From Deltaproteobacteria bacterium (GTDB lineage Bacteria > Desulfobacterota > Desulfobaccia > Desulfobaccales > 0-14-0-80-60-11): a DNA stretch of 55,178 bases. A program made the position numbers and the translations under genes. This document shows, piece by piece, positions 6,442 through 20,731 of this stretch; position 1 is the first letter of the stretch, and the number at the start of each line of letters is the position of its first letter. The notes beneath the pieces were generated by a model. That model was not told the DNA's origin. It saw nothing but the letters and a program-made list of their open reading frames with translations, and searched no databases. The DNA is taken from contig VGSW01000003.1 in assembly GCA_016874915.1 (NCBI GenBank), forward strand, positions 1 to 55,178. Reading direction: 5' to 3'.

Positions 6442-6518
6442 CGGGACGTGGCGCAGCCTGGTAGCGCACCTGAATGGGGTTCAGGGGGTCGGAGGTTCAA
6501 ATCCTCTCGTCCCGACCA
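6442..6518 (+). tRNA. tRNA-Pro (GGG)
   Basis: Acceptor stem CGGGACG/CGTCCCG plus ACCA, D-arm GCGCAGCCTGGTAGCGC, anticodon stem CCTGA/TCAGG with loop ATGGGGT, T-loop GGTTCAAATCC. Confidence 0.97.
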
Positions 6519-9777: not shown

Positions 9778-9794
9778 TTGGCACAAGAAATGCT
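9778..9794 (+). promoter_or_regulatory. Sigma54 (-24/-12) promoter of the fibre-subunit operon
   Basis: TTGGCACAAGAAATGCT (GG-N10-GC), preceded by about 600 bp of AT-rich non-coding DNA. Confidence 0.75.
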
Positions 9795-9919
9795 AAAGTG
9801 AATCCGGAATCAGGCTATCACACAGATTTTATTAATTTTTTAAATTCTCTCTTGATATATAATATTTTGTTTATAAAATAAATGAAATAGATAACAAAAT
9901 GACAAGAAATGGGAGTGTA

Positions 9920-10420
9920 ATGAGGATTGGAACCCTGGCCCTGGCAGTTCTGACCCTAGGGCTGTTGGCCAGCGCGACCTGGGGGGCGCTGACGGAAACC
10001 GTGGTGGTGAATGTGGACGCGCTGGTGGCTTCCGCCGCCAATCTGACCATAGGAGCCACCACCATTAATTTTCCCGACGCCGATCCTGATACCACCCCGG
10101 TGGTGCCAGCCCAGCAGAACCCCGTGGTTGTCACTGCCAGCGCCCAGACCGGCAGCAAAAAGGTGGTCGACCTGTCCGTCATGGCCGCGGGAGATTTAAC
10201 CTCGGGGAGCAACACCATTCCCATCACCAATGTTTCCTGGATCGCCACGGGGAGCGGCTATCTGCCTGGCACCATGAGCAGAACCAGTCCTCAACCCGCC
10301 GGCAACTGGCAGGGGCATGGCACCAGGAACGGCACCTTTTCCTATTTCCTGGTCAACAGTTGGGCCTATAAGACGGGGAATTATACCGCCACCGCCACTT
10401 ATACCCTGACAGTGCCCTGA
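9920..10420 (+). CDS. Secreted pilin-like beta-sandwich subunit 1
   Basis: Signal peptide, N-terminal alternating strand (ETVVVNVDALV), C-terminal GNYTATATYTLTVP, paralog of 10533. Confidence 0.75.
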   Translation: MRIGTLALAVLTLGLLASATWGALTETVVVNVDALVASAANLTIGATTINFPDADPDTTPVVPAQQNPVVVTASAQTGSKKVVDLSVMAAGDLTSGSNTIPITNVSWIATGSGYLPGTMSRTSPQPAGNWQGHGTRNGTFSYFLVNSWAYKTGNYTATATYTLTVP

Positions 10421-10532
10421 GGCGGCGGCCCCATAAACAGATAAGGATAAGTAGCAAATACTGCTCAGCAGTTTGATGAAACAAACCAGCCCCCATGAAA
10501 TTGACTAAAACCATAAGGAGAGGAAACAAATC

Positions 10533-11030
10533 ATGAGGTTAAGGACCATCTTCTTGGCAGTCCTGGCTCTGACCCTGGTGGCCTCCGCCGCCTGGGCAGT
10601 GACCGCGACGCAAGACATTACCATCAGCACCAACATCGCTTCCCGGGCCAAAATCACCATGCCCACGACCACGGTGACCTTCCCCGACTCGGATCCGGAT
10701 ACCACTCCTTCGGTGAGCGCCACCCAAAACCCCCTGACCATTACCTGCGCGGCCCGCACCGGGGCCTCCAGCGCGGTCACCGTGACCGTAAAAGCTGCGG
10801 ATGATCTGAAGGACGGCGCCAAGTCCATCGGCATCAGCAACGTCGCCTGGACGGCCACGGGCGCGGGTTACATAGCCGGCACCATGAGCAAGAGCGCGGA
10901 CCAGAATGTGGGATCCTGGACCGGTTCCGGCAGCCGGGCCGGCACCCTGAGCTTCGCCCTGGCCAACAGTTGGGACTATGAGACCGGTAACTACAGCGCC
11001 ACGGCCACTTACACCCTGACCGTACCTTAA
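10533..11030 (+). CDS. Secreted pilin-like subunit 2 (probable major subunit)
   Basis: TAAGGAG RBS, signal peptide, QDITISTNI donor-like strand, C-terminal GNYSATATYTLTVP, followed by a terminator. Confidence 0.78.
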   Translation: MRLRTIFLAVLALTLVASAAWAVTATQDITISTNIASRAKITMPTTTVTFPDSDPDTTPSVSATQNPLTITCAARTGASSAVTVTVKAADDLKDGAKSIGISNVAWTATGAGYIAGTMSKSADQNVGSWTGSGSRAGTLSFALANSWDYETGNYSATATYTLTVP

Positions 11031-11090
11031 TAGACTTCCCCGGAGCGTTGGCCGCAGGGGGCGGGAGCTCGTCCCCGGCATAAATTTACC

Positions 11091-11125
11091 CAGGGGCGAT
11101 TGGCCAGGTCGCCCCTGACTTTTTT
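11091..11125 (+). terminator. Intrinsic terminator after subunit 2
   Basis: CAGGGGCGAT...GGTCGCCCCTG followed by ACTTTTTT. Confidence 0.8.
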
Positions 11126-11184
11126 ATCCGGCCCCGGTGGTTAATGTCCACTTTACAAATCCATAATTTTCTTGAATAATTGCA

Positions 11185-11703
11185 GTGGACAAGGTACCCC
11201 CTTATTTCTCCTCTTTCCGGAGTGGTGAAAAAATTTATTTTTGGCTTTTGAAAACTGAAGTGATAATAATTTTCTGGTTGCTAATCTTGGGTATGGTGAC
11301 CGCCAGTCCCGCTGTCGCTGCCAAGGTGGCGCCCCCGGGAGCAAAGCTGGTGATCAGTCCCCAATCCCTGATCTTCCAGGTGGGGACTCCCCCGGCGGTA
11401 GCCGTGGCGGAAGTCACGGTGCAGGTAATCTCTCCGGGACAGCAGCCCTGGCGGCTTACGGTCATGGCCTTGGGGGACTTGCAATCCGAGGAAGGAACCC
11501 GGATTCCCGTCAACCAGGTTACCTGGCGGGGCAGGCCGGGCGCAGTGTTCGTGGACGGCGCCTTGAGCGCCAACCACCCCCAGCTCCTGGCCCGGGGTCA
11601 GAGCTCCAAGGCGGGAGTGGTGCGCTTTTTCTTGAAAAACCGCTGGGAGCATGCCGAAGGCCGCTACAGCCAACGCCTGATCTTCAACCTGAGTTCCCCA
11701 TGA
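11185..11703 (+). CDS. Secreted pilin-like subunit 3 (true start probably about 11248-11260)
   Basis: Shares GDL...IPVNQVTW and GRYSQRLIFNLSSP with the paralogs; its stop overlaps the next start (ATGA). Confidence 0.7.
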   Translation: MDKVPPYFSSFRSGEKIYFWLLKTEVIIIFWLLILGMVTASPAVAAKVAPPGAKLVISPQSLIFQVGTPPAVAVAEVTVQVISPGQQPWRLTVMALGDLQSEEGTRIPVNQVTWRGRPGAVFVDGALSANHPQLLARGQSSKAGVVRFFLKNRWEHAEGRYSQRLIFNLSSP

Positions 11704-12503
11704 TAAAAAAATGGTTTTTCGCGCTGGGATTATTGGTGCTTTTAGGAATCTGGGAGGCGCAGCCCGCGGCCGCCCAGTTGAATCTCTTGGTCAGCCCCAT
11801 CCGGGTGGAACAGAAGCTCCAGCCGGGAAGCTCTGAAACCGACATCATCTCGGTGCGCAACGAAGGCGGCCGCCCGGTGCGGGTCAAGGTCTATCTGGAA
11901 GACTGGCAGATGGACGCCAAAGGCAGCCTCACTTATTTCCGTCCGGGACGGGTTCCCCAGTCCTGCGCCGCCTGGCTTCAATTGAACCCGGCTGATTTTC
12001 GGGTGGAAGCGGGTCAAACCAGGGAAGTGCGTTTCACCCTCACCGTGCCCCCCGGAGCCAAGACAGGCACTTACTGGGCCGCCATCATCTTCGAGGGCCT
12101 GCCCGTAGAAGAAAAAGTGACGGTGCAAAAAAGGATCGGCGTCCTGGGCCGCATTGGGGTGGTGCTTTACCAAACCGTGGGCAACCCGGAGGTCAAGGCC
12201 CAATTTCAGGACTTGCAGGTGGTGCCGGATAAGAAAGGGGTGACCTTCAAGATAGCCTTCACCAACCCGGGCCAGGGATTTGTCCGGGTCAAAAAGAGCT
12301 GGATCGCGGTGAAAAATTCCCAGGGCCAGGAGGTGGCCAAGCTGGAAATCCCCGATATTCCGGTGCTGCCCGGCGGCTCTCGGGACCTGGAATTGAAGCA
12401 CGAAAAGCCTTTGCCGCCGGGCAACTACCAGGTGGAGGCGGTGGTGGACCTGGGCCGCCGGGAACTCCAGGGGCGCAAAAAGCCCTTCACCGTGGGCCGC
12501 TGA
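11700..12503 (+). CDS. Periplasmic pilus chaperone-like protein (PapD/DUF916-like, two Ig-like domains)
   Basis: Signal peptide, VSPIRVE, VRNEG, W.QL.P..F.VEAGQTREVRFTLTVP, YWAAIIFE, second domain FTNPG...VLPGGSR. Confidence 0.75.
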   Translation: MIKKWFFALGLLVLLGIWEAQPAAAQLNLLVSPIRVEQKLQPGSSETDIISVRNEGGRPVRVKVYLEDWQMDAKGSLTYFRPGRVPQSCAAWLQLNPADFRVEAGQTREVRFTLTVPPGAKTGTYWAAIIFEGLPVEEKVTVQKRIGVLGRIGVVLYQTVGNPEVKAQFQDLQVVPDKKGVTFKIAFTNPGQGFVRVKKSWIAVKNSQGQEVAKLEIPDIPVLPGGSRDLELKHEKPLPPGNYQVEAVVDLGRRELQGRKKPFTVGR

Positions 12504-12540
12504 TCAGTAATCAGTGATCAGTAATCAGTGGCCAGTGGTT
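12502..12540. repeat. Heptamer tandem repeat (CAGTnnT), with an inverted partner at 12749-12770
   Basis: atcagta-atcagtg-atcagta-atcagtg-gccagtg versus actactggca-actgaccact. Confidence 0.7.
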
Positions 12541-12574
12541 GGAACTTATTATTCAAGTTTCGCACCCCCATCCC

Positions 12575-12690
12575 GGTGGGGCGGGCCTCCGTGCCCGCCT
12601 TCCGTTGGATGGCCGGAGATGGCCCCCCTTCCTGGCACGGCTTAATTTTCATTGTTCGTTGTGACCCTTAGGTCATGATAGTTCGTTCAG
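12575..12690 (+). repeat. About 116-bp direct repeat, copy 1
   Basis: GGTGGGGCGGGCCTCCGTGCCCGCCT ... TTAATTTTCATTGTTCGTTGTGACCCTTAGGTCATGATAGTTCG, nearly identical at 15358-15473. Confidence 0.85.
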
Positions 12691-12940
12691 AATGACCTAC
12701 AGGGAGAAGTTAAGGTTTTGAAATAGCTTCTAATATTCTGGTTTTCCTTGACTACTGGCAACTGACCACTTCCCGGTTTCTCTTGCCTCTTCATCCGAAC
12801 CTCTTTCAATAATTTTCTTGCCCCCTCTTTTACCCCAAATTTTGTCTAACCTTTTCAAAGAGTTATGCTAAAATACAAAAGTTAAAATCAGGGATAGAAA
12901 TATAACCTATTAAAAATACTCTATTTTTCCAGCCTGGCTA

Positions 12941-15199
12941 ATGATTCACGTCCATCCTCCCCGGAGGAGTTCCAGGGCTTCGGGCTCAGGGTGGTGCTAT
13001 CTTCTCTGGCTGGCGCTCTTGACCTTCTGGTTCAGCTCCCTCCCGGCCTGGGCCATTCCTGAGGGCGGCGGCCGGGTAGGCGGGTCTTTCTATTCCCTGC
13101 AGTTCCGGACGCTGGGTCAGCAGTTCTCTTTGAGTGAAGCCTACGGCTTCCTGGACCTTTTCCAGAACATCCCCAATTATGGCCTGGTGGAAGGCAGGGT
13201 GGCCTTCTCCAAGCTCCAGGAACCCGCGGGGTCGAACGACCCTACCGGTTGGCGCCAGGCTTACGGCCGCCTCAGCCTGAAAAATTACCGCTGGGGCCGG
13301 GGAGTCCTGGCCCTGGCCGCAGGGGACGACGCCTTCAATCTCACCGAATTCCCGGTGAAATTCACCAGCTTCTTCTACCCTCTGGTCTATTACCGGGGAT
13401 TAGGCATCCAATACGCGCATCCCTGGTTCCAGGTTTACCTTTTGGGAGGCGAAGTGACCCGGTCCCGGGGACTGGCGGGGGAGACGTTCCTGGGTCTGGG
13501 GGAAAGCCTTTACGGAGTCATGGCCCGCTTTCAGCCTTATGAGCGGCTGCTCCTGGAGACCAATTTTTACCTCACCCGGAATGAAAAGGATTTCACCGGC
13601 AATCTGGTCACCAAAGACAACCAAGTCTACCGGTTGGCTGGTCAGTGGCGGGTTTGGTCCCAGCTTTATTCCACCGGAGAATTCATGCAGAGCTTCTCGG
13701 CGGGCCCCCAATCCCAAAAAGAGCGGGACCTGGCGTACCGCGCCGGTGGCATGTGGAAGGGCGACCGCCTGCGCCTGGAGACCAATTACCGTTATTTCGG
13801 GCCCCGGTTTCACTTAATCAACGAAATCTTCCAGCCCGATCAAGCCGTCAAGGGATACTATGTGGCCGGGGAAGCCAAGCCCTGGCCCTTCCTCTCAGCC
13901 TTCGGCAGCCTCGATACGGCCCGGAATTTTGCTGTGGATCCCGGCCAGAGCATCACCCAAACCGAAACCCGTTCCCTGGGACTGGGGTTTTACCGCGCCC
14001 CCTGGCCGTCCTCATATGTCCGCTATAATGAGAGCAACCTGATCACCCGGAGTGATTTTCCCGTGGCGGTGCGGGGGCGGACCCGAAGTCTGTACAGCGA
14101 AACCATGAAAAAATTCGGGTTCATTGATGCGTATGCCCGTTATGAAAGGTTCCAGTTTTCAGACCAGATCAATCCAGGCCGCAGTTACCGCAAGGAAGCC
14201 CCTGTTTTGGGGGTCAGGGCCTTTCATAAGAAATTCTTGTGGTACGTGGAAGGGGAATATGACCGCTTTTCTCCCCCCAGCGCCGGCCAGGGCTTTGATG
14301 GCCTGTACCTGAAGGTGGGGGGAAACTATTTTGCCAGCCCTGATTGGAGTGTTTACGGGGAAGTGAGTTACCGTCCCTCCAGCCGCCGTTATGGCGGGCA
14401 ATTGGGGGTATATTGGAACCTGCCTTACGGCTTCCGGATCCGGGCCTTTGGCCGGATAGAAAAAGGCACCACCGGGACCGGCGACTTCATCAATAATTTT
14501 TATACCAATCAGATCACCCTGGAAATCATCAAAGTCCTGTCCTGGGGCAAAAAAGTCGAAGTGGCGGGATTAAAGCCGGGCCAGGAATGGCTGGGGTCAG
14601 GAAGCATTGAAGGTTGGGTGTTCAATGATGTAAACGCCAACCAGTCCCTGGACTCGGGAGAGCAAGGAGTGGAAAACGTTAGAATCAAGCTGGAGGACGG
14701 CAGCACCACGGTTACAGACCGGAAAGGCTATTACCAGTTTCCCGCGGTGGCTGCCGGGAAGCACGTGGTTACCCTGGACTCCCGAAAGATTCCCGCGGCC
14801 TTCACTTTTGAAGGCGCGGAAACCCTGGCGGTGGAGGTGAAGCGCCGGGCCACCGCCCGGGCGGACTTCCCCTTTGTCCGGGGGGCCAGCATCCGAGGAC
14901 GGGTGGTGGAAGACGTCAAGGGCGCGGGTAAGCCGCCGCCGGACGCCAAAGGGGTTCCTGACGTGCTGTTGGTGCTGAAGCCGGGGGACCTGAACACTTA
15001 TACGGACAGCGAAGGGGATTTCGCCTTTGAAGGGGTGGTGCCCAAGGAATATGAACTCAGCATCCTGGCCGAAACCTTGCCGGAAGACACCCAAGTCACC
15101 ACCCTGCCGGCCATCAAGGTGACCCTGACTCCAGGAGGCCAGGCTCACGGCCTCATCTTCGGGATCCACCGCCGGGAGCGGCCGATTATCTTCAAATAA
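12941..15199 (+). CDS. Outer-membrane beta-barrel (usher-like) with two C-terminal SdrD-B/carboxypeptidase-regulatory-like domains
   Basis: Signal peptide, about 500 aa of aromatic-rich amphipathic strands, then GSIEGWVFNDVNANQSLDSGEQGV..TTVTDRKGYYQF and a second GASIRGRV..TYTDSEGDFAF repeat. Confidence 0.7.
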   Translation: MIHVHPPRRSSRASGSGWCYLLWLALLTFWFSSLPAWAIPEGGGRVGGSFYSLQFRTLGQQFSLSEAYGFLDLFQNIPNYGLVEGRVAFSKLQEPAGSNDPTGWRQAYGRLSLKNYRWGRGVLALAAGDDAFNLTEFPVKFTSFFYPLVYYRGLGIQYAHPWFQVYLLGGEVTRSRGLAGETFLGLGESLYGVMARFQPYERLLLETNFYLTRNEKDFTGNLVTKDNQVYRLAGQWRVWSQLYSTGEFMQSFSAGPQSQKERDLAYRAGGMWKGDRLRLETNYRYFGPRFHLINEIFQPDQAVKGYYVAGEAKPWPFLSAFGSLDTARNFAVDPGQSITQTETRSLGLGFYRAPWPSSYVRYNESNLITRSDFPVAVRGRTRSLYSETMKKFGFIDAYARYERFQFSDQINPGRSYRKEAPVLGVRAFHKKFLWYVEGEYDRFSPPSAGQGFDGLYLKVGGNYFASPDWSVYGEVSYRPSSRRYGGQLGVYWNLPYGFRIRAFGRIEKGTTGTGDFINNFYTNQITLEIIKVLSWGKKVEVAGLKPGQEWLGSGSIEGWVFNDVNANQSLDSGEQGVENVRIKLEDGSTTVTDRKGYYQFPAVAAGKHVVTLDSRKIPAAFTFEGAETLAVEVKRRATARADFPFVRGASIRGRVVEDVKGAGKPPPDAKGVPDVLLVLKPGDLNTYTDSEGDFAFEGVVPKEYELSILAETLPEDTQVTTLPAIKVTLTPGGQAHGLIFGIHRRERPIIFK

Positions 15200-15357
15200 T
15201 TCCCCACCAAGACACCGGATTTGCAGGGAGCGCACTGCGCAGCAAAATGAGGCTGCTGCAAAAGTGCGCCAAGTGGGATTAGCTGGTTAATTTTTGTCAG
15301 TCTGGGCCACCCTCGGGGGCGAAGAATCGAGACCTTTCGCTTTATATGAAAATACCT

Positions 15358-15473
15358 GGTGGGGCGGGCCTCCGTGCCCGCCTGCCGGTGGGTGGCAGTG
15401 GATGGTGGCCCCACCTTTCAAGGTTTAATTTTCATTGTTCGTTGTGACCCTTAGATCATGATAGTTCGCTCAG
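15358..15473 (+). repeat. About 116-bp direct repeat, copy 2
   Basis: Matches 12575-12690 at both ends, with a diverged middle. Confidence 0.85.
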
Positions 15474-15643
15474 GGTGACAATTCGGGATTATTACAGTAA
15501 TTGCAACAGTCTTATAATTAATTCTCCCCACCCCGACGCCAGGAGCACCAAGGCGAAGCCCCGAGCAATTTGATTTGAGAGGCCCAGTCTCAAAAATGTT
15601 TTCCCGGCAACGTCTTGGTGTTCCTGGTCTCCGGGTGGAGGAC

Positions 15644-16144
15644 TCAAGGTGACGCCAGGGTCAGGGTGACGCTGGCCCCATAGTCGCCGGGAATAAGATT
15701 ACCCTGGTTTTTCAGAACAAAGCTGACTTGCCCCTGGTATACTCCGCTCCGGTTCCAACGGCCCATGGACTGTTGGCCGTTGCGGCTTAAAGACCCGCTT
15801 CTCCAGCCCTCGCCTTGAGAGGTCCAGTCCACCTGTTCCAGGGGGATGCGGCCGGAGGGGCCTTCCAGGTCCCGGGCGGCGCCGATGGACAGGACCAGGG
15901 GCTGGCCCCCGCTGATCCGGCCCCGGGCCGTAATTTGGACCGGCCCTTCCTGGGACGGGATGACCGGCTGGTCTTCGCTCCCCACCAAGGTGAGGTGGGA
16001 GTGGGAAAGGCTTAGGGAAACCCGGGGAAGGATGCGAGCCGTCAGGTGAAGGTTTTTCTGGGCTTCCGCCCCCAGAACCGGCGTCCCGGGCAGAAGCAGG
16101 CCTGCGAACAGAAAGGCCCGTAACCCGCTTAGTTTCTTCCGCAT
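15644..16144 (-). CDS. Secreted pilin-like subunit 4 (riboswitch-controlled)
   Basis: GGAGG RBS, signal peptide, QKNLHLTARI strand, DL..IPLEQVDW, C-terminal GDYGASVTLTLASP. Confidence 0.75.
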   Translation of the reverse strand: MRKKLSGLRAFLFAGLLLPGTPVLGAEAQKNLHLTARILPRVSLSLSHSHLTLVGSEDQPVIPSQEGPVQITARGRISGGQPLVLSIGAARDLEGPSGRIPLEQVDWTSQGEGWRSGSLSRNGQQSMGRWNRSGVYQGQVSFVLKNQGNLIPGDYGASVTLTLASP

Positions 16145-16202
16145 GACAACCTCCTGGGAAGTCTTGGGGTGCCGCGAAACTAAAGGTTTATGGGCCCCAG
16201 AC

Positions 16203-16284
16203 TTCGGCAGCCCGGCTGTCTTGCCTTTTCAGCAAGACCCGTGGCTTTGCGTCCCGTCCTCACGAACGGTTTGCCTTTTCGGTC
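16203..16284 (-). ncRNA. c-di-GMP-I (GEMM) riboswitch
   Basis: The minus strand reads GGCAAACCGTTC-GTGA-GGACGGGACGCAAAGCCACGGGTCTTGC...GCAAGACAGCCGGGCTGCCGAA, about 60 nt upstream of the 16144 start. Confidence 0.92.
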
Positions 16285-16795: not shown

Positions 16796-19700
16796 ATGAG
16801 TATGAAACCGGCAGAGGAAATCAAGACCCTGCGCCAGCAATTGCCTGCCTGGGAAAAAGATGCCTCCGACCTGGACGCCCTGCGCCAGCAGCTTCCTTAT
16901 CACAAGCTGCGCCGGGTGAAGAAGGGTAAGGTCCTCCCCATTGATTGGCAGACGGAATGGGAACGCTTCGACGCCCGGGAACTCTTTAATTTCGACCTGG
17001 CCTCCATTCCGGAAAAAATGCTGGAGAGTATGCGAAAACGCCAGGAAGTCCTGATGGACGGCAACCAGGCGGCCCTGTCGGTACTCACCCGGGTGGTGGA
17101 CGGCCTCTGCGGCTACCCCATCACCCCCTCCACTCCCATCGCCGAAGGCTTCGCCCGGGCCGCGGCCAACGGGCAGAAGAACCTCTTCGGCCACGAGCTT
17201 ATGTATTTCCAGCCCTCAGATGAACTGTCCGCCATCGCCGCGGTGGAAGCCATGGCCGCCCAAGGGGGGCGCTACGCCGACAACACTTCGTCCCAGGGCC
17301 TGCTGCTGAAGACCAAGAACCTGTTCTCCGTGGCCGGCAAGCGTCTCCCCGTGATCATGACCGTCATGGCCCGGGAAGTCAACAAAGGCTCCCTGAGCAT
17401 CCACTGCGGCCATACTGACTTCTACGGGGTGCGCAGCGCCGGCTGGGCCCAACTGATGGCCGCGGACAACCAGGAGCTGCACGACCTCCTGGCCATCGCC
17501 TTCAAAGTGGCGGAACTGCGCCAGGTGATGCTGCCAGTGATGGCCATCGGCGACGGCTTCATCAAGAGCCATGCCATTGAGAATATTAGGGAGTTGTCCA
17601 ACGACTTTTTGGAATACTTCGTGGGCCTCCCCAACCGCTTCTACCAGCCCGACTTCGAGCACGGCGTCCTCACCGGCACTTTCACCGACATGGACCTGAC
17701 CATGGAAGGCCAGGTGGCCCAGGATACGGCCTACCGCTTTTTCAAACGGGGCTTCGTGGCGGCCATGTACGTGATGAACAAGGTCCTGGGCACCAATCTC
17801 AAGGTGGTGGAGTGTTACCGCACCGAGGACGCGGACATGGTCATCGTCATCATGGGCTCCGCCGCCGGGGTGGTGAAAGACGTGGTGGACTACTACCGGG
17901 ATGTGAAGGGCTACCGCATCGGGGTGGTGCGGCCCGTCCTCTTCAACCCGCCCTGCTACGAGGAGCTGGCCTTCGGCATGCGCAACGCCAAGGTCATCAG
18001 CGTCTTGGAGCGCAGCGCCCGGGCCCACAACCAGCTTCTCATGTACGACGTGCAGGCGGCCCTGCAGATTTCATTCCGGGCCATGCGGGAAGGGAAAAAA
18101 GAGCACCGCCTCTATGGCCGGGAAATCATGCCCACCCTGCTCCACGGAGTTTACGGCCTGGGCAGCAAGGATTTTAACAAGTATGACGCGGCCGCGGTGG
18201 TGGAGAACATGGTGGCCTGTCTGGAGGGCAAGCGGGGATTCCTGAGGGATTCTTACTCGGGCATCGAAGGCCCCTTGTCCTTGCAGCCAGCCGCCCTTCC
18301 CGGCTACCTGGAGCGGGAGCTGAGCATGACCTTCATCGGGGTGGGCGCCGAAGGGGTGAAAACCGCCTTGGAAAGCGCCGCCCTGGTCTATGCCGAAGAC
18401 ACCGGCCCCAGCCACATCTACGTGCAGACCGGGGCCCGTTACGGTGCGGCCCGCAAGGGCGCCCCGGTCTTCATGAACCTGCGCCTCAGCTCCCAGCCCA
18501 TCCGCAACAGCTCGGAGCTCACGGAGCGGGACGTCCTGGCCTTCTTCAATGAAAAATTCATGAAGGGCCAGATCCTGAAAGAATACGTGGGCGGCCTGAA
18601 AAAACACGGGCTGCTGGTCATCAACACCGACAGAAGCCCGGAAGAGGTGGTGGCCGAATTTCCTGAGCAGATTCAGTCCCTTATCAAGTACCGCCAGATC
18701 AAGGTCCAGACGTTGGACGGCACCCGGGCGGCCCTGCAGCACCTGAACCGCAACCTCCCCGGCGCACCCATCATCGGCCTCATCAATAAAGAGATGGGGA
18801 TTCTCACCGAGAAGCAGTTTGAGCAGAAGTTTAAGAAAACCCTGGAGAAAATACTGGGCACCAAAAAGAAAGAAATGCTGGAGTCCAACATCGCCTTGCT
18901 GCGTTTCGGCGCCGAGCGGGCCAGCGGCTCCCCCGCGGAGCGGGCCAAGGCGGCCCTGATCCTGGAGCGGGGCGGGCCTACCTATGTCCGGCACCAGCCC
19001 GAGAACTTCGGCCAGGGGCGCCGGGCCGCGGGGCTGCGGGTGCACCTGTCGGACAAGGACGAACTGGGCACCATCAAGCCCGTGCCCCTGTTCGAAGACT
19101 ACCAGGAGACTTTCCGCCAGGAAATGGTGCAGCCCATCCTGGAGGGCCAGAAGGTCTCCTGGGACCGGTTCTTGCCGGTGGTCCCCGCGGCCACCAGCCG
19201 TTACCGGGACATGAGCCACGTCGCCACCTCGCTGCCGGTCTATGACCCGGAAAAGTGCATCGCCTGCGGCATCTGCACCGCGTCGTGTCCCGATTCGGCA
19301 CTGCACTCCACCATCACTTACCGGCCCATCAGCGCCACGGCGGAGCGCTATTTCAAGGTCTTCAAGAAACCGCCCAAGGGGGTTCCCTGGAACCGCTTTG
19401 CCTTGAACCTCTGCGCCGACCCCAGCGCCTGCAAGGGCTGCGGCGTCTGCGCCCAGGTCTGCCCCACCGACGCGCTTCGCATGGTGTCCAAGGATGAACT
19501 GCGGCCCGAGGACTTTCTCCCCCAGGCCTACCGAGATTGGGACCACACCACGGAGCTGGCCCCCTTCGTGGATCAGCTGGCCCTGAATCACCAGGTGCTC
19601 TTCGTTTTCTCCAAGCTCTATCCCGGCAAGCACACCTTGTGTCCGGGGTGCGGCGAGGGAGTCATCAACCTGCTCACCTTCTTCGCGGCGGAGTCCCTGC

Positions 19701-20731
19701 GGAACCACCCCCAGGGCATCGCCACCTTTTACCAGGGCATCAAAATCCTGTCGGAGCGCAACCAGCGGGCCATCGAGCACATGCTGGACCACGGGTTCAA
19801 CATTTACACCATCAACGCCACGGGCTGCGATCAGGTCTCCGAGCTGGTCAACCCCTTCAACACCCGCATCTACCCCTCGGGCCACTACGGCTTCGGCACC
19901 GCCTCCGCCGCGGCCCTGGGCGCCAAGTTCGCCCTGGACCAGGCCGTCCAGAACCGTTACAGCGACGTTCTCACCAAGATCATCGTCTTCGCCGGGGACG
20001 GCGCCATTTACGATATCGGCAACGGCCCCTTCAACTACGCCCTGGGCGAGAACTTCGACATCACCTGGGTGATCTACAACAACGAAGCCTATATGAACAC
20101 CGGGGTGCAGAAGTCCGGGGCCACCCGCTTCGGCTGCGACCGCTCCACTTCGCCCATCGGCAAGAAATACGCGGGGAAAACCACCCTGCACCGCCGGATC
20201 ATCAGTCAGGCCATGGCCATCTCCCACGTATACGCGGCCAAGCTTTCCATCGACAACCCCTTTTACGCCATCCGCATCCTGAAGGAAGCCATCGCCTACA
20301 ACGGCCCCTCCATGGTGGAGTTCTTCTCCCCCTGCCCCCAGGGCCACGTGACCCACGACTGGGCCGGCCCCCTCATTTCCCGCATGTTGGTGGAGGCCCG
20401 CAAGTGGCAGGCGGCGGTGCGGCGGCCCTTCCAACGCATCGACATTACCGGCAACCCCAGCCCCGAACTCATCTACCCCGACAAAGGCAAGTCCTTCAAG
20501 CAGGGCATCAAGCGGGACGCGGCCAGCTTCTACGACGTGGTGAGCATGCTGGGCCAGTACAACCAGCACTTGAAGACCGTGAAAAGCGGCGACATCCCGG
20601 AAATCGTCCGCATCAACGAAACCGTGAGCCTGTTCCGCTGGCTCCGGAACCAGCACCTGGGCGGCTACCGGGACTCCATGCCCTCGGAAGAAGAAGTGGC
20701 CAAGATCGTGGAGGAGCGCTACCGGCTGTAA
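16796..20731 (+). CDS. Single-chain 2-oxoacid (pyruvate-type):ferredoxin oxidoreductase, alpha-gamma-delta-beta fusion
   Basis: GYPITPST, YGLGSKDF, YGAARKG, 2x[4Fe-4S] (CIACGICTASCP, CKGCGVCAQVCP), CPGCGE, TPP motif GDGAIYDIG...NNEAYMNTG, SPCP. Confidence 0.9.
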   Translation: MSMKPAEEIKTLRQQLPAWEKDASDLDALRQQLPYHKLRRVKKGKVLPIDWQTEWERFDARELFNFDLASIPEKMLESMRKRQEVLMDGNQAALSVLTRVVDGLCGYPITPSTPIAEGFARAAANGQKNLFGHELMYFQPSDELSAIAAVEAMAAQGGRYADNTSSQGLLLKTKNLFSVAGKRLPVIMTVMAREVNKGSLSIHCGHTDFYGVRSAGWAQLMAADNQELHDLLAIAFKVAELRQVMLPVMAIGDGFIKSHAIENIRELSNDFLEYFVGLPNRFYQPDFEHGVLTGTFTDMDLTMEGQVAQDTAYRFFKRGFVAAMYVMNKVLGTNLKVVECYRTEDADMVIVIMGSAAGVVKDVVDYYRDVKGYRIGVVRPVLFNPPCYEELAFGMRNAKVISVLERSARAHNQLLMYDVQAALQISFRAMREGKKEHRLYGREIMPTLLHGVYGLGSKDFNKYDAAAVVENMVACLEGKRGFLRDSYSGIEGPLSLQPAALPGYLERELSMTFIGVGAEGVKTALESAALVYAEDTGPSHIYVQTGARYGAARKGAPVFMNLRLSSQPIRNSSELTERDVLAFFNEKFMKGQILKEYVGGLKKHGLLVINTDRSPEEVVAEFPEQIQSLIKYRQIKVQTLDGTRAALQHLNRNLPGAPIIGLINKEMGILTEKQFEQKFKKTLEKILGTKKKEMLESNIALLRFGAERASGSPAERAKAALILERGGPTYVRHQPENFGQGRRAAGLRVHLSDKDELGTIKPVPLFEDYQETFRQEMVQPILEGQKVSWDRFLPVVPAATSRYRDMSHVATSLPVYDPEKCIACGICTASCPDSALHSTITYRPISATAERYFKVFKKPPKGVPWNRFALNLCADPSACKGCGVCAQVCPTDALRMVSKDELRPEDFLPQAYRDWDHTTELAPFVDQLALNHQVLFVFSKLYPGKHTLCPGCGEGVINLLTFFAAESLRNHPQGIATFYQGIKILSERNQRAIEHMLDHGFNIYTINATGCDQVSELVNPFNTRIYPSGHYGFGTASAAALGAKFALDQAVQNRYSDVLTKIIVFAGDGAIYDIGNGPFNYALGENFDITWVIYNNEAYMNTGVQKSGATRFGCDRSTSPIGKKYAGKTTLHRRIISQAMAISHVYAAKLSIDNPFYAIRILKEAIAYNGPSMVEFFSPCPQGHVTHDWAGPLISRMLVEARKWQAAVRRPFQRIDITGNPSPELIYPDKGKSFKQGIKRDAASFYDVVSMLGQYNQHLKTVKSGDIPEIVRINETVSLFRWLRNQHLGGYRDSMPSEEEVAKIVEERYRL

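Follow-up and report, generated by a model that had tools for sequence, protein, structure and literature searches.

The six genes described here lie in a 55,178-nucleotide stretch of DNA from a Deltaproteobacteria bacterium of the order Desulfobaccales (assembly GCA_016874915.1, contig VGSW01000003.1, positions 1 to 55,178 of the forward strand; the whole stretch is hereafter called the window), whose genome is 98.5% complete. Between positions 9899 and 16144, six open reading frames (ORFs) encode four secreted, pilin-like paralogues of about 140 amino acids (aa), a chaperone and an outer-membrane protein, i.e., the same set of four paralogues, two-domain chaperone and 752-aa barrel that a preliminary description of this DNA, made without database searches, had listed; all six ORFs were found where that description had placed them. 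On the forward strand, subunit 1 (9899-10420, 173 aa), subunit 2 (10533-11030, 165 aa) and subunit 3 (11185-11703, 172 aa counted from the first GTG) are followed by the gene for the periplasmic, PapD-like chaperone (11700-12503, 267 aa), whose start overlaps the subunit 3 stop by 4 bases, and by the gene for the usher-like barrel protein (12941-15199, 752 aa), with subunit 4 (15644-16144, 166 aa) lying beyond them on the reverse strand. All six proteins begin, as read from their sequences, with a hydrophobic segment resembling a signal peptide. As laid out below, we regard the locus as a genuine and conserved variant of the archaic chaperone-usher pathway that Pfam models miss and of which no earlier description was found in the literature covered.

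The arrangement is not restricted to this genome. Nineteen related loci were fetched by way of the chaperone family, from genomes of Desulfobaccales, Syntrophobacteraceae, Desulfarculales, Geobacter and Thermoanaerobaculum. A gene of the barrel family directly follows the chaperone gene in all 19, subunit genes are present in 18, and the loci span at least three phylum-level groups. Within the phylum of the source organism, the chaperone family was found (E ≤ 1e-5) in 15 of the 301 genomes sampled, its own genome included. We fetched 13 of these chaperone-family places, and they form a graded series. Four weak chaperone matches lie in textbook archaic loci, where Usher (PF00577) matches four of four proteins, PapD_N matches four of four and SCPU all 10 scanned. 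Five intermediate matches stand beside outer-membrane proteins of 922-1059 aa that have CarboxypepD_reg ends and no Usher match (the proteins of loci L026, L027, L032, L033 and L036; hereafter, the intermediates). Some intermediates have an immunoglobulin (Ig)-like N-terminal region (NPCBM_assoc/FixG_C-like) in place of the usher N-terminal domain, and that of L036 carries an added PKD domain.

Subunits, chaperone and barrel protein

The three other paralogues share 54, 30 and 29% identity with subunit 1 in a full-length alignment with 18 invariant columns, which take in a D-L ... I ... V-x-W block and a terminal G-x-Y ... L-x-x-P, bearing out the shared motifs named in the preliminary description. 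Of 589 candidates, 156 qualify as database relatives of subunit 2 at E ≤ 1e-3, and the same motifs are invariant or almost so across a 56-sequence subunit alignment; given this number of relatives and this conservation, the motifs are not a product of chance. The family hidden Markov model (HMM) scores 220 bits on subunit 1. Pfam and NCBIfam scans of the four window subunits were empty, with no pilin-family match, and PDB sequence searches returned nothing significant for the profile of the four paralogues (best E 0.46) or for that of the 56 sequences. The sole match of a chaperone-usher-pilin type among the 25 families listed (of 26) for the 56 sequences was DUF4402, in one sequence at E 0.55, and this identity, suggested by the UniRef name of one relative, was dropped on that account. 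Profile-profile comparison (hhalign) aligned the subunit family with 10 SCPU pilins over 135 columns (95.7%, E 8.6e-9). An AlphaFold2 model of subunit 2, built with the 56 relatives, reached a predicted local distance difference test score (pLDDT) of 92.9, and the Foldseek comparison with known pilins that the preliminary description had proposed put chaperone-usher pilins on top: the best solved matches are CfaB, FimF/G, the PapG pilin domain, CS17, Caf1 and CsuA/B, at probabilities near 1 and template-modelling (TM) scores of just 0.35-0.5. Such pilins also fill 38 of the 50 rows of a VIA-align search with this model, the other 12 being six strand-donation fibres (TLP-1a/b, archaeal cannulae and thread) and six glycosidase domains. 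Taken together, these comparisons suggest that the subunits are probably homologous to the chaperone-usher (SCPU) pilins.

The subunits fall into four differentiated classes. Subunits 1, 2 and 4 have an N-terminal extension of 14-16 aa with alternating hydrophobic residues, a putative donor strand; subunit 3 has none and shows ~9 residues fewer between its signal peptide and its first strand. The lack of a donor strand had been seen before, with the suggestion that subunit 3 could be a cap, and it is a conserved trait: a donor-strand-less class stands directly 5' of the chaperone gene in 15 of the 18 other subunit-bearing loci, and the mature N-terminus of its members, like that of subunit 3, is separated from the first strand by just 2-6 residues. 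Lacking a donor strand, a subunit could be placed nowhere but at the distal end, and therefore subunit 3 is likely the tip or initiator subunit. Across the loci, at least two "rod-like" subunit genes have the 14-16-residue extension, and subunits 1 and 2 are the candidate major subunits here. Subunit 4 belongs to a distinct orthologous class that recurs 3' of the barrel gene in related loci and is a candidate adaptor or terminator. An orphan fifth paralogue of this class was found by family search elsewhere in the same genome (locus L039 on contig C67, 6682-7320, forward strand), with no chaperone, barrel or riboswitch nearby.

All four window subunits are single-domain proteins and the locus has no two-domain tip adhesin, as had been noted at the outset. 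In two of the three loci that depart from the pattern, the place directly 5' of the chaperone gene is taken by a single chain (L022, 7215-7916; L023, 1-735; both forward strand) in which two pilin domains stand in tandem, connected through a short linker plus a segment resembling a donor strand. This chain looks like a natural analogue of an engineered self-complemented subunit, or a two-domain tip; as a mimic of the engineered form, it would fit an antiparallel strand insertion beside the C-terminal strand. The reading frames of the barrel and subunit genes of L022 are also broken at several points.

The Pfam matches of the chaperone (fn3_5, NPCBM_assoc and DUF916) are all sub-threshold, its match to the NCBIfam model "fimbria/pilus chaperone" (E 2.9e-6) is far below the cut-off, and PDB sequence searches were empty both for the protein and for a 37-sequence family profile (best E 0.21). 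The NCBIfam model is matched by 13 of these 37 family members, the 25 of 46 families listed for them do not include PF00345, and several of the 73 database relatives are named "P pilus assembly chaperone PapD" by JGI. Compared as profiles, the 37-sequence family and the four PapD_N-positive chaperones of the archaic loci align over 195 columns and both domains (99.4%, E 1e-21). Two family members bridge the gap individually: the chaperone of the most distant locus, L025, matches the family HMM at E 2.9e-33 and also exceeds the PapD_N threshold (25.7 vs. 23 bits), and that of L033 exceeds it too (25.2 vs. 23 bits). On this profile evidence the chaperone can securely be taken as a homologue of the PapD-like chaperones. 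Canonical chaperones hold the subunit C-terminus with two conserved basic residues of the cleft; in the family, R35 is nearly invariant and R151 invariant, both align with K/R of the canonical chaperones, and both lie in the predicted interface strands of the complex model described next.

The model of the chaperone with subunit 2, a check likewise suggested in the preliminary description, gave an ipSAE score of 0.77 (0.77, 0.74 and 0.78 in the individual runs), compared to 0.00 for the best of three controls; that mark was attained by 58 of 80 solved complexes and by 2 of 110 mismatched pairs. The runs have at least 88% of contacts in common, with partner pLDDT of at least 86. Chaperone residues 142-153, a predicted G1-like strand, pair in parallel with the last strand of the subunit (146-156 up to 153-163), the N-terminal chaperone strand 26-35 pairs with the first strand of the subunit, and subunit residues 23-35, i.e., the N-terminal extension, stay outside the interface. 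The modelled pairing is the geometry of donor-strand complementation.

The barrel protein consists of a signal peptide (residues 1-38, 12941-13054; the model has a helix at 17-33 and the first strand from residue 42), an outer-membrane beta-barrel (residues 39-545, 13055-14575) that is usher-like and carries an invariant G128-D129 motif, and two C-terminal beta-sandwich domains (residues ~550-660 and ~665-748, 14588-15184), all on the forward strand. Its only Pfam matches are SdrD_B/CarboxypepD_reg in the last 200 residues; SdrD_B matches there in two stretches at E 2.1e-15, in agreement with the two SdrD-B-like repeats proposed initially. The PDB held no significant sequence match. The family is rare: out of 1.84 billion, 42 representative clusters match at E ≤ 1e-3, and the C-terminal sandwiches are kept in 10 of 10 relatives scanned. 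Against the four canonical ushers of the same phylum (PF00577 at 88-102 bits), hhalign aligned the barrel family over 171 columns, all within the C-terminal two domains (95.6%, E 1.2e-8), so that these domains are securely homologous to the usher C-terminal domains, as counterparts of CTD1 and CTD2. The whole barrel family is in turn tied to the intermediates (99.9%, E 2.4e-32) and the intermediates to the canonical ushers (98.1%, E 9.8e-14), and a G-D motif is invariant at aligned positions in all three usher-like sets.

The two ends of the protein differ in what they share with ushers. With the end of the signal peptide at residue ~38 and a first long strand from 42 onward, no room is left for an N-terminal usher domain, and the first 150 residues of the canonical ushers show no likeness in the barrel family or the intermediates (0.2% each); the absence of this periplasmic domain, proposed in the preliminary description, is thus borne out. 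At the other end, some barrel relatives have OmpA or LysM appended after the two sandwiches, and canonical PF00577 ushers with extra peptidoglycan-binding ends occur as well, with OmpA in L030 (5015-8014, reverse strand) and three SPOR repeats in L031 (8749-12288, forward strand). Because of these additions, we place the barrel C-terminus in the periplasm. In between, the model shows ~26 strand elements, 6-8 at first, then a poor, short-stranded stretch at residues 95-200, and then 18 that are confident. PapC and FimD are laid out as six strands, a plug and 18 strands, and the modelled series would fit this layout.

Regulatory elements and neighbouring features

The leader of subunit 4 contains an element that was absent from the preliminary description, a c-di-GMP-I-GGC riboswitch aptamer (RF03167; 16202-16284, reverse strand, 83 bases), which scores 73.4 bits against a gathering score of 59, covers model positions 1-80 of 80 and has a region E of 2.1e-16. 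None of 18 related loci has the riboswitch at the gathering threshold and, therefore, it would be a lineage-specific regulatory addition. At the equivalent place beside the subunit 4 orthologue of L007, the closest related locus, there is a fragment (D1-D4) of a group II intron (12397-12498, reverse strand, 82.2 bits).

On the forward strand, a sigma-70-like promoter match (9852-9879, 10 of 12 consensus positions) lies just 5' of subunit 1; this is a consensus match only, and the region has 16 such sites compared to 3.9 expected. A strong hairpin resembling an intrinsic terminator (11091-11117, forward strand; 11 pairs, seven of them G-C, and a T-run) follows subunit 2. Placed after the candidate major pilin genes, it would cut read-through into the chaperone and usher genes. 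The chaperone and barrel genes are separated by a 437-base spacer (12504-12940, forward strand), at the start of which (12501-12536) there is a 7/14-base tandem repeat with the unit ATCAGTA in ~4 copies. A block of ~45 bases (12836-12880) is conserved with L007 and the remaining spacer is not. These spacer elements are possibly an internal promoter or an RNA element.

Two further features flank the locus, a tRNA gene upstream (6442-6515, forward strand) and a 1311-aa ORF just beyond the riboswitch region and on the opposite strand to it (16796-20731, forward strand). Among the sequencing runs listed, no RNA run has the locus, and eight DNA runs labelled lake water metagenome contain at least half of the sampled words.

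Weighing the possible readings

We favor the hypothesis that the locus belongs, as a strongly diverged member, to the archaic (sigma-type) chaperone-usher pathway and that donor-strand exchange most likely yields a thin, non-covalent fibre on the surface, and we would give this hypothesis a probability of roughly three in four. The preliminary description had gone further and proposed an uncharacterised class of pili. That proposal did not hold up, because each of the three components has remote homology to archaic (sigma) components of the same phylum, and the locus is better seen as a divergent branch of a known pathway than as a new class. What did hold up is the earlier idea of a chaperone-usher-like fibre system; its parts escape the canonical HMMs. 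No paper describing the family was found in the chaperone-usher, SCPU and WxL/DUF916 literature, covered mostly at the level of abstracts.

Several points weigh against the favored hypothesis. All six window proteins miss the curated thresholds of the pilin, PapD_N and Usher models, neither PF00345 nor PF00577 matches the chaperone, the barrel protein or anything else in the source genome, and the 25 families listed (of 26) for the 56 subunit sequences at E ≤ 1 do not include SCPU (PF05229). When the C-terminal domains are removed, the link through the intermediates becomes only moderate (88.9% between barrel family and intermediates, 91.7% between intermediates and ushers), and direct comparison of the barrel core with the canonical usher barrels is not significant (0.7%, E 0.082; also with mact 0.05). 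The barrel model itself has a pLDDT of 71 and a predicted TM score of 0.48, with residues 1-200 poor; Foldseek puts FimD and PapC first (E 1e-18 to 1e-9) at a TM score of only ~0.2, and no plug domain can be identified, residues 95-200 being poorly modelled. The complex score may show likeness rather than prove binding, since chaperone-subunit complexes have already been solved. Finally, fibre formation and surface location are predictions from the genes. For the barrel core we conclude, accordingly, that homology to the usher barrel is plausible and not secure.

This last point gives room to a different view of the 752-aa protein, namely a porin, or an exporter of polymers, that has no tie to the chaperone beyond its neighbouring position, with the small proteins being periplasmic or surface Ig-like proteins and no fibre being secreted. 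The missing Usher match, the non-significant barrel-only profile comparison, and the lack of an N-terminal usher domain and of a recognisable plug would all be expected under this view, and a VIA-align search with the barrel model returned porins, AlgE and TonB-dependent receptors and no usher in the 50 rows shown. The VIA-align list does not exclude an usher fold, however, because the first 200 residues of the barrel are poorly modelled. Further, a porin that happened to lie next to a chaperone gene would hardly follow it in every one of the 19 loci across at least three phylum-level groups, have C-terminal domains that match those of ushers, or belong to a family so rare and so constant in architecture (sandwiches in all relatives scanned). 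The canonical ushers of the same phylum share the habit of C-terminal sandwiches with OmpA/SPOR additions, and the modelled strand count would fit the 6 + 18 topology of PapC and FimD. Hence, we consider the porin or exporter view quite improbable. Even less probable, in our opinion, is that chaperone and pore serve a capsule-like or matrix polymer of the Caf1/F1 antigen type instead of discrete adhesive pili. Such a polymer would agree with the absence of a two-domain adhesin from the locus, with subunits that are all single small domains, and with the Caf1 complexes among the Foldseek matches of the subunit, and the same option is considered for tip-less WxL loci in a preprint on the Elr system (bioRxiv 10.64898/2026.10.17.759780). 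On the other hand, the conservation of the donor-strand-less class (15/18 loci) suggests a defined distal end, and there are four differentiated subunit classes, not one.

The relation to Gram-positive WxL/DUF916 pili requires a more careful assessment. The preliminary description had placed the subunit ends and the chaperone in an intermediate position between those pili and the chaperone-usher systems, and this idea is partly supported. DUF916 (PF06030) is found, below threshold, at E ≤ 1 in 27 of the 37 chaperone-family members (best E 6.7e-6), the match of the window chaperone spans nearly the whole domain (residues 39-132, profile positions 22-120 of 121), and PapD_N, as mentioned above, is not among the families listed for the same set. 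Judged by sequence, then, the chaperone sits between PapD-like and DUF916-like sequence space. In addition, the terminal motif of the subunits resembles the WxL end motif in the unconfirmed form given by the preliminary description, YxxxxxWxLxxxP. Related clusters of the language-model Atlas carry WxLIP_HBD or WxLIP_PGBD on 11-14% of their members, and the nearest named Atlas cluster of subunit 2 is WxL (0.94, 177 shared features), followed by SCPU (0.92), although neighbours of this kind are leads only. According to the Elr preprint, the donor strand of the Elr chaperone comprises residues 141-152 (bioRxiv 10.64898/2026.10.17.759780), compared to the predicted 142-153 here.

Other observations speak against membership. 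At E ≤ 1, the 25 families listed (of 26) for the 56 subunit sequences do not include WxL (PF13731), the DUF916 match of the window chaperone stays under threshold (18.3 vs. 27.3 bits), and PF11797 (DUF3324) is missing from the 25 of 46 families listed for the chaperone family. The chaperone has a charged, non-hydrophobic tail and no C-terminal membrane helix, none of the subunits has LPxTG, and the significant profile-profile links lead to SCPU pilins and PapD_N chaperones. The WxL/DUF916 link is weak, and it is improbable, though less so than a porin, that the locus belongs to the WxL/DUF916 lineage itself, be it as a diderm counterpart or as an ancestor with an outer-membrane pore added. A broader proposal deserves a more tentative kind of doubt, without being likely: the family might form a separate, widespread diderm clade of donor-strand exchange that bridges archaic chaperone-usher and WxL/DUF916 systems, with a minimal usher that recruits and gates in undescribed ways. 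The family is seen in Thermodesulfobacteriota and Acidobacteriota, there are hints of chaperone relatives in Bacteroidota, Deinococcota and Vulcanimicrobiota, and under such a bridging role the barrel may be an usher minus its N-terminal docking domain and perhaps minus the plug too. We continue below with the favored hypothesis, i.e., a strongly diverged archaic chaperone-usher system.

Relation to known systems, proposed assembly and significance

The closest known systems are the archaic pili, such as Csu of Acinetobacter baumannii, CupE of Pseudomonas aeruginosa and the SCPU loci, and the differences from them are several. No part of the window system reaches the SCPU, PapD_N or Usher thresholds; the SCPU pilins compared have an invariant C48 and C79, a cysteine pair that the window subunits lack; and the window subunits end in T-L-T-x-P, whereas archaic SCPU pilins end in an aromatic residue. 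Unlike archaic ushers, the window barrel begins three residues past the signal peptide and hence has no N-terminal domain. Where Csu has CsuE, a tip adhesin of two domains, the window has a single-domain subunit without a donor strand. The classical and alternative pili (type 1 Fim, P pili, CFA/I) provide the best solved structural matches of the subunit (CfaB, the CfaE pilin domain, FimF/G/A and PapA/K/E), and, by Foldseek, their ushers FimD and PapC those of the barrel protein. They also have in common with the window system the complementation by a parallel chaperone strand, predicted here. However, they show no similarity to the window proteins at the sequence level, as the PDB searches were empty, and classical ushers have N-terminal and plug domains, whereas the window barrel has no N-terminal domain and no recognisable plug.

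Outside the chaperone-usher pathway, the Elr preprint describes pili of Enterococcus faecalis in which WxL proteins are assembled by donor-strand exchange with the help of a membrane-anchored DUF916/DUF3324 chaperone, in a system reported to be confined to Bacillota and with chaperones disjoint from the PF00345 chaperones (bioRxiv 10.64898/2026.10.17.759780). The window system resembles Elr in its two-domain chaperone, in the DUF916-like matches of the N-domain, in a donor strand at ~140-150 and in the existence of loci with or without a tip adhesin. Elr belongs to monoderms and has a C-terminal helix anchoring the chaperone, a sortase/LPxTG-anchored fibre and no outer-membrane pore; the window system, by contrast, has a soluble chaperone with a signal peptide, a pore, and no WxL HMM match. 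The TLP-1a/b fibrils from pond water (CryoSeek, PMC11494351) have ~236-aa protomers that take a strand from protomer n+4 and form a tubule; with an identity of 12%, evidence of kinship is limited to the fold.

Based on homology, synteny and structure predictions, from which the individual steps are inferred, assembly might proceed as follows. Signal peptides would take the subunits across the inner membrane, and in the periplasm the chaperone would complete the open Ig-like fold of each subunit, its residues 142-153 running in parallel with the C-terminal strand and 26-35 lying against the first strand, so that the N-terminal extension stays free. Subunit 3, having no extension, could serve as the first, distal unit only. 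Subunits 1 and 2 would then join at the base, where the N-terminal extension of each would enter the preceding unit's groove, and the fibre would exit through the 752-aa barrel, whose two C-terminal sandwiches would be periplasmic like CTD1 and CTD2 of ushers. Because the N-terminal docking domain is missing, the sandwich domains probably take over the recruitment of chaperone-subunit complexes. Finally, subunit 4 would be made conditionally, behind the riboswitch of the cyclic diguanylate (c-di-GMP) type, and could act as an adaptor or terminator that links the make-up or length of the fibre to the sessile state.

These results bear on how chaperone-usher systems are counted and understood. 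Given that the window system escapes the models in use, censuses of chaperone-usher systems based on PapD_N and Usher would miss the whole family. In the textbook assembly cycle, the usher N-terminal domain receives every chaperone-subunit complex; an usher without this domain conflicts with that cycle and offers a natural test of what an usher needs at a minimum. Further, with scores against DUF916 as well as fimbrial chaperone models, this diderm chaperone family is where a common origin of the two should obviously be sought. For the organisms themselves, fibres of this kind may matter for the aggregation of anaerobic sulfate reducers and syntrophs.

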